A stretch of DNA of 63,541 nucleotides, the filler included, from Reclinomonas americana ATCC 50394 (Eukaryota), in the NCBI GenBank assembly GCA_048213135.1. It is 8 parts of 3 records of this genome, joined end to end, with 100 filler letters (N's around TTAATTAATTAA, not from the genome) between each part and the next. Parts side by side here need not be neighbours in the genome. Positions count along the whole stretch, not along the records: positions 1 to 6,856 come from PS015604.1; positions 6,957 to 12,421 come from PS015604.1; positions 12,522 to 29,907 come from PS015604.1; positions 30,008 to 34,857 come from PS015605.1; positions 34,958 to 40,057 come from PS015605.1; positions 40,158 to 47,772 come from PS015607.1; positions 47,873 to 55,627 come from PS015607.1; positions 55,728 to 63,541 come from PS015607.1. One strand, given 5' to 3'. Of this stretch, positions 242-63,232 are shown in pieces; position 1 is the first letter of the stretch, and each line of letters begins with the position of its first letter. The notes below the pieces were generated by a model. It saw only the letters and a program-made list of their open reading frames with translations. It ran no database searches and was not told where the DNA came from. The position numbers were made by a program, and so were the translations under genes.

Positions 242-3200
242 ATCGAACGTGGTGCAAATCGAGCACGTGATTGGCGAGAAGCAGCGCCGTCTCGAGCGCG
301 TGGTGCAGGCCGACGAGGAGGCGAAGCAGTCGCTGCAGGAGCACGTGGAGTTGCAGGGGAACCTCGAAGAGGAAGCGACGCGCGTGGACGAGATTATGGC
401 CAAGACCGAGGCTCGCCTGACGCAAGTGGAGCGCGAGTTGCAGGATCTCAAGGACACGCAGTACAAGCGCTCGACTGCGCTGTTTGCGTTGAGGCGCGAG
501 GAGGTGACTGATCTCTTCCTCTTTGTGTGCGCGCTTGTTTTTCTTGCTCTCTCTCTCTCTATGTCTCTATTTCTCTCATTTCCTCTTTCGCTCATACTGC
601 GCTTTCATCCATGCTCGCCTCTCCCTTTCTCTCCTTCCCTTTCATTCCTTCTCGTATCTTCGTACTGTCCTTGAAGCTGTGCTTGCTCAACTATCTTTTC
701 TGCTGTGCTCATCTCTCTTCCCCCATCTCCTCTCCCTCTCTCTCTTCCCCCTTCCCCCTTCCCCCACACATTTTCCCTTCTTTTGTTTCTCTTCGGTTTT
801 TCTCTCTTTGTATTCACCTGCGCCCAGTTTTGCTCTCGCTCTTCTCTCTTTCTCTTTCCCTCTCGCTCTCTTATTTCCACCTTCCTTTTTGCCTTCCATC
901 TCTCACTTTCTATCCTTTCCCCTTCCGCATCTCTCTGTATCTTCACCTGCGCCTAATTCTGCGCTCACTTTTCTCTTTTTCTCTCTCTCCCTCTCTCCTT
1001 CCCTCTCTCTCCCTCCCTCTCTCTCTTTCTCTCCCTCTCTAACTTTTTCCATTTCCTTCCCTCTCAGTTGAGCAAGAACAGCTTGAGCATGGCAACTATC
1101 AATTCTGCTCTGCTCATCACTCTTCCCTCTCTCCCTTCTCCCTTTCCCCACTCATTTTCCTTCTGTTTCTCTCTCTTTCTGCGCTCGGTCTTCTCTCTTT
1201 CTCTTTCCCTCTTCTCCCCCCTCGCTCTCTCATTTCCACCTTCCTTCCACCTCTCACTTACTTTCCTTCCCCTTTCCCCCTTCCCCCAATACCTTCCTTC
1301 TCCCTTCTCCCTTATCACCCTCCCTTCCCCCTTCCCCCCTTTCCCTTATCCCCCCTTTCCCTTCACTCACCCCCCTTCCCCTCCTCCCTCCACAGGCCAA
1401 CTTGATCGCGGAGATCGCCGGCTGCCGCTCGCAGAACAAGAACATGATGGCCAAGCTGCAGCAGCTGGATGCCGAGTCCTTCAAGCAGCAGGAGCTGCTG
1501 TACAACATTGAGTTCCAGATCCAGCAGCAGGAGCGCCGCGTGAACCGCGCCGAGGGCGACCGCAGCGAGGAGGAAAAGGCGATTTTGAATGAGAAGATCG
1601 AGCAGCTGCAGGTGGCGCTGGAGGAGGTCACCGGGCGCTGCAAGATGCTGAACGGACAAGTCACTCGCGTGCTGAGCGAGGTGCGCAAGGCCAAGGTCGC
1701 CGCCGCGGAGAAGCAGTTTGCCAAGCAAAAGGTGTCGGAGAAGATCATGGAGCTGCGATTGGAGAATGACACGTTGCGTTGTCAAAGAGGGGAAAGCTAG
1801 TTTTTTTCTCCAATCTTGTCGATGCTCATCGTCTCTCCCGCAGTTGCGCGCAAGAGCTGCGAGAGCTGGCCAAGCAGCGCGAGGACATGATGGTCGATCA
1901 CGACGTGCTCAAGCTGCAAGTCAAGCGGCTGCGTGACATTCTCAATGCGCGCAGCGACGAGGTGTTTGGACTGGAGAACCGCAAGGGTCAGCTGGAGATC
2001 ACGCTGCAGGAGCGTGAAACCGAGATCCGCGTGTACAGGTCTCGTAGTTGACTGGATGCCCTCTTCCCCCCTCTTTCACGCCTGCTCACTTTTTTTGCGC
2101 CTCCACAGAGATACACTGTCGTCGGAGCTGCGCATGATGGACGAGGAGCGCAGCAAGTTGGTGCGCGAGCTGAAGGAGCGCGAAGCGCAAGTCGACCGAC
2201 TGCGCAACCGGTACGAGATTCTCATGACACGACTCCGCGTCAACGATCCAGACGGCGACGCAGACGGCGAAGCTCTGCAAGCCAAGTTTATCATCAAGGC
2301 GGCGCAGGAGCGCGAGGCTCTGATGCGCACCGGTGACGAGCTGGATGCGCGCATTCAGAAGCTGCTCAAGGAGGAGAAGTCGATGCGCAAGTCGCTCAAC
2401 TTGCTGCGCGCCAAGAATGTGGGGTGCGTTGTGGTTTTGTGGTGGGGGGAGGGCTGATGTCACCGGTGGATGAACTCATCCGTTTCTTGCAGATTCCAGC
2501 AGAGTTTCCACAAGGCCGACGGCAGCAGTGCCGAGGCGCAGAAGAAGACCGATCTTGATGAGGTGGGTGGTCGTCGTGATCGGAGGTGAATGACTCGTGT
2601 GTATCTCACTCGTAGGTGTGTGGTACACAGAAATTGCACAAGGCGCGTGCGTCGCTGCAAAAGATGCGCACCGAAATGCTGGAAATCGAGGACATTAACG
2701 AGAAACTACGGGTGCGTGATGGTGGTAGTGATGGCGATGCATTGTTGTGATGTTAACTTTCATGTGTGATGCAGAACGACTTGGAGGCCATTGAAGCGCA
2801 AGAAAAGGGCGACGTCGCGCACGAGATTGCCGAGTCGCAAGAGCAGAAGCAAGCACTGCAGTCGGAGACCAAGACGCACGCGGAGCGTCTGGGCACATAC
2901 ATGCGCAAGAAGCAACGGTGAGAAAGAGAGAGAGAGAGAGAGCCTGCGCACCCTCCCCCTTTTCGCCCATCATTTACTCACACTACATGCTAACGCCACA
3001 GAGCTCTGCGATCACTGAAAGAGAAGCACGGTGTACCCGACGAGGAACTGCATCCGATTGAGAAGGACCTCATGATTGCCGAGATGCGCGACCGAAATCG
3101 CGAGGCTCTGAACCTGCTGCTGCAACTGGGCAAGATCAATCCGGCGCTGCGCGATCCCTTGGAGGAGATGACGCAGCGATTCGGTCTGCAACGCACTCGG

Positions 3201-3368
3201 TCGAGCTCTGGTCGTGACAGCGCACGCAGTGATCGCTCGCTGGGCTCGCGACCGGGCTCAGCACGCAGTGTGTCGAGTGCACACTCGGCGGTCAGTGGTG
3301 CAAGTGCAGGCAGTCAGCACAGTTCGGCTCGCCAGGTCATTCCCAGGACAATATCGCTGGGGTTGTAG
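242..3368 (+). CDS. CCDC39: Coiled-coil domain-containing protein 39 (axonemal 96-nm ruler), 5'-partial, 8 visible exons
   Basis: Spliced frame gives ...LIAEIAGCRSQNKNMMAKLQQLDAESFKQQELLYNIEFQIQQQERRVNRAEG...DHDVLKLQVKRLRDILNARSDEVFGLENRK...FIIKAAQEREALMRTGDELDARIQK, matching CCDC39/FAP59 as I recall it; GT-AG introns; TAG at 3366-3368. Confidence 0.9.
675..1083. mobile_element. Possible MITE-like insertion inside a CCDC39 intron
   Basis: 18-bp inverted repeat (agctgtgcttgctcaact / agttgagcaagaacagct, 1 mismatch) flanked by TGA on both sides; no coding capacity; interior pyrimidine-rich. Confidence 0.35.
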
Positions 3369-3407
3369 TAATGTACAAACATGTGCAATGTGGTGTGACA
3401 AAACCAT

Positions 3408-61301: not shown

Positions 61302-61454
61302 ATGGCCGACACCAACGAGTTCTCACGGGGTGGCGCTGACGCCACTGCCTCCGACTCCATCTGGGACACCGTCGCCGAGGTCGGCGCTGATGTGGCTGTC
61401 GACGGTGGCCTCGAGCTGCTGTGCTGCCGTCAGGACGACGCACCGCCGCAGTAA
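61302..61454 (+). CDS. Small peptide B (50 aa), tandem paralogue pair
   Basis: MADTNEFSRGGADATASDSIWDTVAEVGADVAVDGGLELLCCRQDDAPPQ*. Confidence 0.85.
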   Translation: MADTNEFSRGGADATASDSIWDTVAEVGADVAVDGGLELLCCRQDDAPPQ

Positions 61455-61555
61455 GAGAGAGAGAGAGAGCAGAGCAGCGAATGAATGAATGAATGACAAT
61501 CGTTGTTTACGCCCCCGTCTTTGTGTCCCCCACGTTGTGTTATTGATCTCAAATC

Positions 61556-63232
61556 ATGGCGCACGAGGTGAGTGGTCGCTCACTCACGCACTCTCGCACT
61601 CACTCGCCTCACTCCACTGCCGCCACCGCAAAGGGCGTGGACGACTATCGCGCAGAGTTGCGCTGATCTCTCACACTTGGCGCTGATCTGCCACTCACGA
61701 AACCTAATCGCAGAGATCTTGTGCGCATGTTTCCCTCGGAGGAGAGGGCCAACCTTGGCGTGGGTACCTATGCCGAAGTGGGCTTGTTCATGCACGTGCC
61801 GAGGGAGAATCCGGTCGCTGTGAAGGTATGACAGCCTATGTGCACCACGCTGCTGCCTTTTTCTTCCCATGTGCGCTGTTGTTGTCCGCAGACCGAGCCT
61901 CACGACGCACACATCACGGAGCGCACTCTCCAATCGCAGCCAATCATGGTTCGCAGACTGCAGCTGCTCACAGTGTCTCGCTTTGTTTTGTGCTGACGAC
62001 TTGTCGGCAGGAGAACATTGAGAGCGTGATTCAGTGCTTCGGCTACTTCATCGACAGTGGGTGTGTGTTGTGCCTCTCGCTGCAGCATTCTTCCTACATG
62101 TCGCCAGTCGTGCTCACTTCCGCCTGCAGATTTGTGCACTACATTCTCGAGTACATGGATGGTTTGTTGTGCTTCTCGTGACTCCTTGTTTCACGCGTAC
62201 GCGTTCACCTGCGACAACGACGACGACTGCAGGTCTGTCGCTTGAGTACCACCTCGAAAACTTGCCGGGGGGTTTCGCTGGACTGCCGCTCGACGTCGTC
62301 AAGGCCATCGTGTGGCAGGTGTGCTCCTTTCCATCGCCAAGCTTTCTCTCTCATCATCACTTCTCTTTCGCTTGTACTGCTTTCTATCAGTGTCCCCCCC
62401 CCCCCTCCCTCTCTCTCTTCGCTTTCTGCCCTGCCCTTCCTGCCTCGTGCCTGTAACAACCGCTGTTCTCTTGCGCTTCACTCAACCCTTCTCTCTCCAC
62501 TATCGCTCACCCTTCTGCTTTCGCTGCAGGTCACGCGCGGTCTGCGCAGCATTCACGCTCGCAGAGTGGTGCACCGTGACATTCGCCCGGCCAACATCCT
62601 CCTCGACACGCAGGGGCAAGTGAAAGTCACCGACTTTAACACTTCGCGCCCACTGCGAGAGGGTTCATGGGGCTCAACATGTCTGGGGCAGTACTGCTAC
62701 ATGCCGGTTGCGTGCACAAGTACACTCGCACTCTCACGCTGTGCGCTATAGTTTCACCCGCATCGCGAACCCAATTGCAGCCAGAGGTTTTGAAATATCC
62801 ACACAGGCACGGACTGAATGCCGATGTGTGGAGTCTTGGCATGACCACGTACTTTCTGGCGTGTGGAGTGAATCCGTTCGTGGCGCCATGTGTAACGCAA
62901 CTTGTGCGTCGCCTTTGCTAACTGCGCCTCCACGCACGTGCAGGATCCCCCGCAACGCCGCGGGAGCCGAGATGGCACACGAGGATGGCGTTCCAGTTCT
63001 CGACCCATTGCTGTATGATCCAGATCTCTGCGACTTTGTGCGCGTGTGCCTCATCGCGGATCCCGCACTCCGGCCAGAATCGTGTGCGTTGCTGGAGCAC
63101 CCAGTCTTTCACGGCATGGGCCAAGATAGAGCGATGGGCATCGTCAGTGACTGGCTGGTCAACCTGGTGGGATACCAACCGCGGCAGCTGCCATCTGTGG
63201 CCGAGCTGCTCAGTGCACTCCATGGTACATAA
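61556..63232 (+). CDS. Divergent STE7/MAPKK-like protein kinase, 9 exons
   Basis: LGVGTYAEV..VAVK..LEYMDGLSL..HRDIRPANILLDTQGQVKVTDFN..YMPPE..ADVWSLG..CDFVRVCLIADPALRP..LLEHP. Confidence 0.88.

Follow-up and report, generated by a model that had tools for sequence, protein, structure and literature searches.

Can one set of genes use two registers of the same 5' splice site? The question is raised by a stretch of the genome of Reclinomonas americana ATCC 50394 (assembly GCA_048213135.1), 63,541 nucleotides (nt) long and hereafter called the window, in which the usual intron donor resembles GTGCGT, with G at +5, and a further group of introns begins with GTTGCGT or a close variant. Donors of this second group, the displaced class, lack G at +5, have it at +6, mostly followed by U, and so present the consensus of the main class one base further into the intron. 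The original prediction had listed 36 of them, 22 on the plus strand and 14 on the minus strand, and had proposed that they form a second abundant class of donor; each of the 36 positions does begin with GTTGCGT or a named variant of it. From the analysis described here, there is a high likelihood that sites of the GTTGCGT class are genuine donors and a class of their own and, as far as genomic sequence can tell, the introns that they open are ordinary U2-type GT-AG spliceosomal introns, cut at the first G of GTTGCGT.

Donor status of GTTGCGT

GTTGCGT occurs 40 times on the two strands of the window, compared with a mean of 15.73 (standard deviation 3.72, maximum 24) in 100 dinucleotide-preserving shuffles, none of which reached 40, and the sister heptamers that differ from it at +3 number 18 (GTCGCGT), 15 (GTGGCGT) and 1 (GTAGCGT). 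Four further tests assume no donor motif. In the first of these, hexamers seen at least 12 times were ranked by their enrichment 35–160 nt upstream of a branch motif followed by a YAG acceptor, and TTGCGT came top (40/77 vs 29.7% overall), followed by GGTGCG and then GTTGCG. A strict branch motif with YAG lies 42–160 nt downstream of 27 of the 40 GTTGCGT sites, and these were taken into a test of frame coherence, which asks if the best reading frames in the 75 nt on each side agree after removal of the sequence up to an acceptor chosen by rule. They did so for 18 of the 27, for 29 of 40 sites with the main donor GTGCGT, and for 742 of 2226 GT sites without a +5 G, the last proportion (33%) being the value expected by chance. 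Frame-coherent sites with G at +6, T at +7 and no G at +5 comprised 18 GTTGCGT, 5 GTTTCGT and 2 GTTGAGT.

The commonest donor heptamer in donor-blind gene models, which are too noisy to give junctions by themselves, was again GTTGCGT (8/114). Last, a mixture of position matrices was fitted to 63 acceptors with a downstream coding frame and the 134 upstream GT candidates that keep an open coding frame, with one donor allowed per acceptor. A single component converged on GTG.gt; two gave GGTGcGt (weight 0.67) and GTTGCgT (0.33), the latter with T, G and C at +3, +4 and +5 at frequencies of 0.62–0.70, and a model of three components retained GTTGCgT at a weight of 0.32. The log-likelihoods for one, two and three components were 222.0, 266.2 and 299.2. 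That GTTGCGT arises unprompted as a component of its own, where GT was all that was demanded of a donor, is evidence for its status as one.

Homologues or family profiles fix six junctions of the class exactly at |GT, namely those at 1773, 42014, 44207, 44511, 45087 and 62707 (Table 1). In the gene for CCDC39, the relative P0019 (72% identical) aligns as far as ...RLENDT at 1773 and again, with no gap, from 1842–1844 on, its residue 548 spanning the split codon AC|T. In the fidgetin-like gene, the upstream exon ends at residue 86 of PDB chain 3d8b_A (W-E-D-I) and the downstream frame starts at 87–88 (A-G-V-E-F-A-K); the split codon G|CG encodes the A of the conserved DIAG at residue 87, and G would stand in its place if both ends were shifted by one base; thus the intron at 42014 must begin with GT and end with AG, with boundaries moved by one base excluded. 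The alignment of PDB 1ihg_A to the cyclophilin stops at IPKA, the junction at 44207. The product of the gene at 45087 has a 305-residue relative, P0028, retrieved by a full HMMER search, which covers an exon lost from the gene model, where it fell wrongly within an intron of 215 nt. A cut at the second GT of the motif (GTTGC|GT) was considered and rejected at both 44207 and 42014: with no suitable AG acceptor to keep the conserved spacing, IPKA-LI-QGGD and WADI-A-GL would be broken. The junctions for which conserved motifs had been invoked earlier thus hold in the cyclophilin (NPHV|F and IPKA|LIQGGD), the fidgetin-like protein (WADI|A-GL) and the kinase (YMP|PE); that proposed for NOP14 (KHM|GSANAF) does not share this footing, as it requires a 391-nt intron from 33512 and no match fixes it. 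Near to these stands a cyclase junction at 54996, consistent with its profile to within three or four positions.

Site by site, a donor-blind codon model, trained on gene models in which GT was the sole donor requirement, passed 19 of the 36 listed positions. The sites at 42014, 62707 and 44511 failed this coding test and yet are fixed by homology, which indicates that the score is conservative. Of the positions put forward as introns, therefore, 22 are supported, 11 are weak, and three could not be judged, either because a repeat or a block of N follows (39853 and 30081) or because no open coherent frame was found (53957). Eight supported sites were absent from the earlier list: 2039, 15850, 38094, 37459, 37085, 23167, 18359 and 32948.

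The share of introns that use the displaced donor was approached through gene models containing 130 introns, which are imperfect and use the learned donor mixture. They hold 19 strict members of the class, 3 with GTTGCG[AG], 73 donors with a +5 G and 35 that fit neither, of which many are probably wrong. In two genes where homology fixes every intron inspected, the class accounts for one member and one variant with C among seven introns (CCDC39) and for two among four (cyclophilin). Roughly 15–25% of introns would then carry a displaced donor, an estimate from the sequence of one window of 63 kb, and the earlier figure of about one in five is a reasonable one.

Features of the class and alternative explanations

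Among 22 modelled members, T at +3, G at +4 and G at +6 are universal, partly by definition, C at +5 (20/22, 91%) is nearly so and T at +7 is frequent (77%). Among sites with G at +6, T at +7 and no G at +5, true donors were estimated by subtracting incoherent from coherent sites, and the base inserted at +3 is chiefly a pyrimidine: T in ∼19.5, C in 7.5 and A in 1.5. Each common variant of the main class has a displaced partner shifted by one base (GTGCGT and GTTGCGT, GTTCGT and GTTTCGT, GTGAGT and GTTGAGT), and GTCTCGT behaves alike. The classes differ on the exon side: in modelled donors, G stands at −1 in 77% of the main class and 9% of the displaced class, where A accounts for 55%. In sets chosen without donor scores, the corresponding counts were 37/93 and 5/40 for G (Fisher p = 0.002) and 16/93 and 14/40 for A (p = 0.04).

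Elsewhere the two kinds of intron look the same. All modelled displaced introns begin with GT and end with AG, with C at acceptor position −3 in 20 of 22; a CTNA[CT] branch motif is present in 18 of 22, CTCAC being the commonest in both classes, and the median distance from branch to acceptor is 18 nt in both. Median intron length is 69 nt (displaced) and 68 nt (main), and G+C content 0.54 and 0.55. The shared branch motif, distance, acceptor and length point to the same machinery as that of the main class and argue against introns of a minor spliceosome. U12-type introns have the donor RTATCCTT and the branch sequence TCCTTAAC; they were rejected as an identity for the class because GTTGCGT is unlike their donor and its introns share their branch motifs with the main class. 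The two are alike in being second intron classes within one genome with a donor more rigid than that of the main class. They differ in donor motif, in the branch site and its distance, which here are those of the main class, and in share, which here is far above the 0.36% given for human in Tan et al. 2016 (PMC4856993).

The tests above bear on several rival explanations of the class. Were GTTGCGT no donor at all, enriched for some other reason and drawn into introns by the gene models or by chance, one would expect failures such as the 11 weak and three unjudged positions in the list and the eight or so of the 40 GTTGCGT copies where no intron fits (3929, 10091, 10536, 62901 and 54967 are examples); six homology-fixed junctions at the motif, a frame coherence twice that of the control and the association with branch and YAG make this very unlikely. 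A single degenerate matrix, variable from +3 to +6, of which GTTGCGT is one frequent outcome, draws on the real variability of the main class at +3, where GTTCGT, GTCCGT and GTACGT donors also occur, and is improbable in the extreme. Independent columns predict 0.41 GTTG[CA]GT donors among the 130 modelled introns and 16 are seen, a comparison that is partly circular since the models use the learned mixture; the donor-blind counts and the GT-only mixture are free of that weakness, a second component adds 44 units of log-likelihood, and the preference at −1 differs by class. These results support the proposal of a second, abundant class that one matrix cannot explain. The uniform heptamer and its clustering in single genes (seven candidates in 34960–37850) might instead recall a mobile intron, an introner-like element spread as a family of copies with its own donor. 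We rejected this idea, which we regard as the most remote of all, because introns of the class are no more alike along their length than other introns are: outside the donor, mean local alignment scores are 8.00 for displaced pairs, 8.03 for main-class pairs and 8.12 for mixed pairs.

Pairing register and known systems

How, then, might the core of the donor come to lie one base further from the cut? We infer the register, and consider it probable, with appreciable doubt, that these are ordinary GT-AG introns in which the core bound by U1 is displaced by one base, in a shifted or a +3-bulged register. In this proposal, the core paired by the small nuclear RNA (snRNA), TGCGT, which for main-class donors (G|GTGCGT) spans +2 to +6, lies at +3 to +7 in the displaced class, the two reading G|G-TGCGT and N|GT-TGCGT when aligned on the core, and U1 would bind there one base out of its usual register. 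With the shifted geometry, G at +1 of the intron would take the slot of exon G at −1, opposite C9 of U1 (numbered on the U1 5' end printed in PMC4856993), U at +2 would lie opposite a mismatch, and the last exon base would face U10. With the bulged geometry, the extra pyrimidine would be bulged out at +3. Only at a later stage would the cut be set, through the demand of the catalytic centre (U6, U5 and Prp8) for GU. The depletion of G at −1 fits the plain one-base shift, because the pairing of G+1 with C9 would free the last exon position. For GTTGCGT, the bulged register predicts the opposite, a G at −1 that is instead depleted. From the homology-fixed GTCTCGT at 2039, it seems that donors of a bulged kind occur in addition to those with T.

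A number of observations weigh against this proposal. The same site at 2039 has G at −1, which fits a bulge and not a shift, and T at −1 is as common as A in the displaced set (15/40 and 14/40), which calls for more than a shift. Nor has the C at +5, almost invariant (20/22), a partner in standard U1. Folding with ViennaRNA duplexfold, a model that ignores pseudouridines and U1C, was run with the standard U1 5' end; it gave the canonical register for 59 of 73 main-class donors (mean −6.5 kcal/mol), whereas 30 displaced donors ranged from about +0.5 to −6.6 kcal/mol and were mostly weaker than −3, with 4 fully shifted and 14 in no sensible register. For what is the commonest donor heptamer, a standard U1 that simply pairs in the shifted register would thus seem to bind too weakly. 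In addition, all junctions were read from genomic sequence, and the 35 of 130 modelled donors that fit neither class, in models that are rough, leave the share uncertain.

The weakness of standard pairing implies either that proteins or later steps carry the displaced sites or that the U1 of this organism differs. A U1 with a changed 5' end, or a second U1, could pair GUUGCGU directly, for example through a core complementary to UGCGU and not UAAGU, so that the class would reflect co-evolution of the snRNA and not a tolerated mis-register. Such a core would make both donor classes strong, and the cut would then routinely fall one base from the U1 mark in about one-fifth of introns. The poor pairing of standard U1 in silico speaks for it, as do the rigidity of the class (G+4, C+5 and G+6 in 20–22 of 22) and the GCGT core shared with the main class (in the window, GTGCGT has 109 copies, GTAAGT 6 and GTTAAGT none). 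The last point is tempered by composition, because a GC-rich genome alone could favour GCGT over AAGT, and a U1 that read GUUGCGU and continued with CCUG would still favour G at −1, which is depleted. Moreover, hardly any variation is known at the U1 5' end among eukaryotes, which also counts against a changed U1. On balance we hold this to be a tentative alternative, unlikely as matters stand and still to be taken seriously. The original prediction had taken the class to imply variant U1/U6 snRNAs or altered recognition by U1C, Luc7 or Prp8; such changes may exist, but they do not follow from the sequence evidence. An Rfam scan of the window found no family that reached its gathering score, and snRNAs were absent even at E ≤ 1. 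If routine cutting one base from the U1 mark is true, the genome would offer a natural, genome-wide uncoupling of U1 register from the catalytic 5' splice site.

The closest known counterparts of the displaced class, in the favoured reading of a displaced U1 core, are the shifted-register 5' splice sites of human. These are likewise GU donors without a +5 G, with the consensus one base in, to which U1 pairs in a register shifted by one and which are cut at the upstream GU. They differ in being a handful of atypical sites, as opposed to about one-fifth of donors here, in having AAGU and not GCGU as their core, and in resting on suppressor-U1 proof. PMC4856993 describes a shifted register as well as one bulged at +3 (or +2), with 68 predicted and 54 curated human sites of the +2/+3 bulge type, and puts validated noncanonical registers together at 1.5% of 201,541 human donors; the earlier statement that shifted registers are rare in mammals agrees with these figures. 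In the bulge register as set out there, an extra U at +2/+3 displaces the pairs of +3 to +6 by one, an arrangement that GTCTCGT at 2039 resembles. It is rare in human, whereas here GTTGCGT alone is the commonest donor, and the G at −1 expected with a bulge is depleted.

A second comparison comes from a mutant of Caenorhabditis elegans. One cryptic site of the unc-73(e936) allele reportedly lies one base upstream. According to PMC6140464, the allele is a G-to-U mutation at +1 with suppressors in snrp-27 and prp-8, and SNRP-27 is proposed to keep the 5' splice site in place during the hand-off from U1 to U6/PRP8. On that account, the likeness is that a GU adjoining the position marked by U1 is used as the cut, with register and cut separable and proteins of the tri-small nuclear ribonucleoprotein holding the position; the difference is that the worm case is caused by mutation and gives mixed products, whereas here it is the normal state of many genes.

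Full-text searches of the literature for GTTGCGT, GUUGCGU and GTTGAGT returned one unrelated paper, with thin coverage of subscription journals, and a search of the literature on noncanonical registers, including that on protists, yielded no abundant displaced class in any organism, although a published donor logo could exist. The mechanism would probably be a displaced U1/U6 register of a kind already known, used here at an unheard-of frequency. The precision of the cut during the hand-off from U1 to U6/Prp8 is still studied on a few mutant or atypical sites of worm and human. An organism whose commonest donor heptamer is displaced would provide hundreds or thousands of natural test cases, and would show how far donor recognition can drift. 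There is also a practical consequence, in that gene finders with a single +5-G donor matrix would mis-call about one-fifth of the introns in such a genome; the donor-blind and single-class gene models used here mis-called displaced introns likewise.

Genes, remaining introns and other observations

The window (63.5 kb, ∼58% G+C, 2,915 N in blocks) is gene-dense, with both strands coding and short introns numerous. Single reading frames with Pfam matches identify genes for CCDC39, a protein of motile cilia, RIC1, a P2X-like channel, a family-17 glycosyltransferase, an ankyrin protein and Nop14, and also for a fidgetin-like AAA ATPase, a cyclophilin, an actin-related protein, a class III cyclase and a kinase. 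No copy of the genes in the window was found in the protein collections searched. For the CCDC39 exon, the best match was P0019 (940 residues, 73% identity) and the named matches were to Euglena gracilis (a transcript, 55%) and Acrasis kona (52%). P0019 and P0028 belong to one relative, whose proteins are about 40–73% identical to those of the window. A search of metagenomes with the Nop14 exon gave one locus, 29% identical and too distant for a comparison of introns. For the P2X-like gene, a word-index search with the exon gave no match, and two exon frames compared with the PDB gave none or E ∼ 0.06, too weak to fix the junctions at 20526 and 20680. The displaced introns and the weak or unjudged positions of the list are collected in Table 1.

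Table 1. Displaced donors and their introns in the window. Homology-guided junctions come first, then other supported or candidate introns, then listed sites that were weak or could not be judged, for which the span is that of the heptamer.
Span	Strand	Donor	Length (nt)	Gene	Basis
1773..1843	+	GTTGCGT	71	CCDC39	P0019 residues 548|549 contiguous; Pfam CCDC39 profile 552|553
2039..2108	+	GTCTCGT	70	CCDC39	P0019 (60–72% identical) fixes ...RVYR|DTLSSELR; displaced one base, C at +3, G at −1
42014..42086	+	GTTGCGT	73	fidgetin-like-1 AAA ATPase	PDB 3d8b_A chain residues 86|87|88
44147..44207	−	GTTGCGT	61	cyclophilin	junction IPKA|LIQGGD; Pfam Pro_isomerase profile 49|50
44449..44511	−	GTTGCGT	63	cyclophilin	PDB match starts at first exon residue F (FLEIGIGG), GNPHV before it
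45087..45145	+	GTTGCGG	59		P0028 colinear over both exons, one-residue length difference; coding test passed
54923..54996	−	GTTGCGT	74	class III cyclase	junction ELCQR|RQVEIKFRIGVNTG; Pfam Guanylate_cyc ~95 and ~99 either side
62707..62780	+	GTTGCGT	74	protein kinase	junction YMP|PEV; Pfam Pkinase profile 165|166
7355..7438	+	GTTGCGT	84		open coherent frames, CTCAC branch, CAG acceptor
14984..15051	+	GTTGCGT	68		frame coherence, gene model, coding test
15394..15487	+	GTTGCGC	94		frame coherence, gene model, coding test
15850..15903	+	GTTGCGT	54		candidate; coding test passed; TAG acceptor uncertain, no branch motif
18304..18359	−	GTTGCGC	56		frame coherence, gene model, coding test
19729..19794	+	GTTGAGT	66	P2X-like	coding test passed; in-phase alternative donor 19708 possible
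20526..20591	+	GTTGCGT	66	P2X-like	frame coherence, coding test
20680..20760	+	GTTGCGT	81	P2X-like	frame coherence, gene model, coding test
23043..23167	−	GTTGCGT	125		candidate; coding test passed; acceptor uncertain, gene model 217 nt
23279..23353	−	GTTGCGT	75		donor-blind model, frame coherence, gene model, coding test
28817..28897	+	GTTGCGT	81		coding test; no CTNAC branch motif
32884..32948	−	GTTGCGG	65	Nop14	gene model, coding test; flanked by positions 106 and 107 of the Pfam Nop14 profile
35494..35567	−	GTTGCGT	74		frame coherence, gene model, coding test; 122-nt alternative acceptor fits too
37003..37085	−	GTTGCGT	83		frame coherence, coding test
37393..37459	−	GTTTCGT	67		coding test; second displaced heptamer
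38094..38159	+	GTTGCGT	66		coding scores 8.2 and 7.2
38668..38736	+	GTTGGGT	69		frame coherence, gene model, coding test
45892..45953	+	GTTGAGT	62		gene model, coding test; P0028 exon similarity ends ...WDAVS
46075..46134	+	GTTGCGT	60		frame coherence, gene model, coding test
50194..50250	−	GTTGCGT	57		donor-blind model, frame coherence, gene model, coding test
51638..51698	−	GTTGCGT	61		donor-blind model, gene model, coding test
61657..61713	+	GTTGCGC	57		frame coherence, coding test
5316..5322	−	GTTGCGT			weak on coding test
19077..19083	−	GTTGCGT			weak on coding test
21347..21353	+	GTTGCGT			weak on coding test
21689..21695	−	GTTACGC			weak on coding test
24301..24307	−	GTTGCGT			weak on coding test
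26728..26734	+	GTTGCGA			weak on coding test
30075..30081	−	GTTGCGT			not evaluable: intron enters N block
33506..33512	−	GTTGCGT		Nop14	weak; Nop14 junction requires 391-nt intron
38932..38938	+	GTTGCGT			weak on coding test
39853..39859	+	GTTGCGT			not evaluable: (TG)n repeat then N block
40377..40383	+	GTTGCGT			weak on coding test
41036..41042	+	GTTGTGT			weak on coding test
46235..46241	+	GTTGCGT			weak; 58-nt intron possible
53951..53957	−	GTTGCGT			coherent open frame not found

The displaced class may be unevenly spread among genes. One gene on the minus strand, at 34960–37850, has about 15 modelled introns and seven candidate displaced donors, four with GTTGCGT (37085, 36138, 35567 and 35186) and three with GTTTCGT (37459, 36287 and 35910).

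Introns of other kinds were met in the genes that homology covers. The cyclophilin gene contains a GC-AG intron of 65 nt (43929–43993, minus strand), which starts with GCGCGT, is required by ...NGSQ|FFFIMS and was missed by the GT-only models. In CCDC39, P0019 fixes both ends of an 892-nt intron at 504–1395 (plus strand), which is filled with CT-rich low-complexity repeats and has the donor GTGACT, without a +5 G. Residues 287–305 of P0028 (KLRRVA..., after ...WDAQS) bear a weak similarity to read-through of the intron at 45892–45945 on the plus strand (QLSRTA...), and the relative's contig behind P0028 may contain the same intron, unspliced and with a similar donor.

The family-17 glycosyltransferase gene (24868–25842, plus strand) lacks any relative that exceeds ∼31% identity along the whole gene, and its exon is matched at full length at 31% at best; the protein atlas identifies the family only, and the nearest clusters there are labelled mostly viral or bacterial. 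Seven blocks, at 6857–6956, 12422–12521, 29908–30007, 34858–34957, 40058–40157, 47773–47872 and 55628–55727, consist of 44 N, 12 bases and 44 N, a regularity that looks like a masking or scaffolding convention and not like sized gaps; plain runs of 574, 989, 106 and 630 N occur elsewhere in the window. Two perfect dinucleotide repeats are present, (CA)45 at 37646–37736 and (TG)51 at 39878–39981, the latter directly after the GTTGCGT of 39853.

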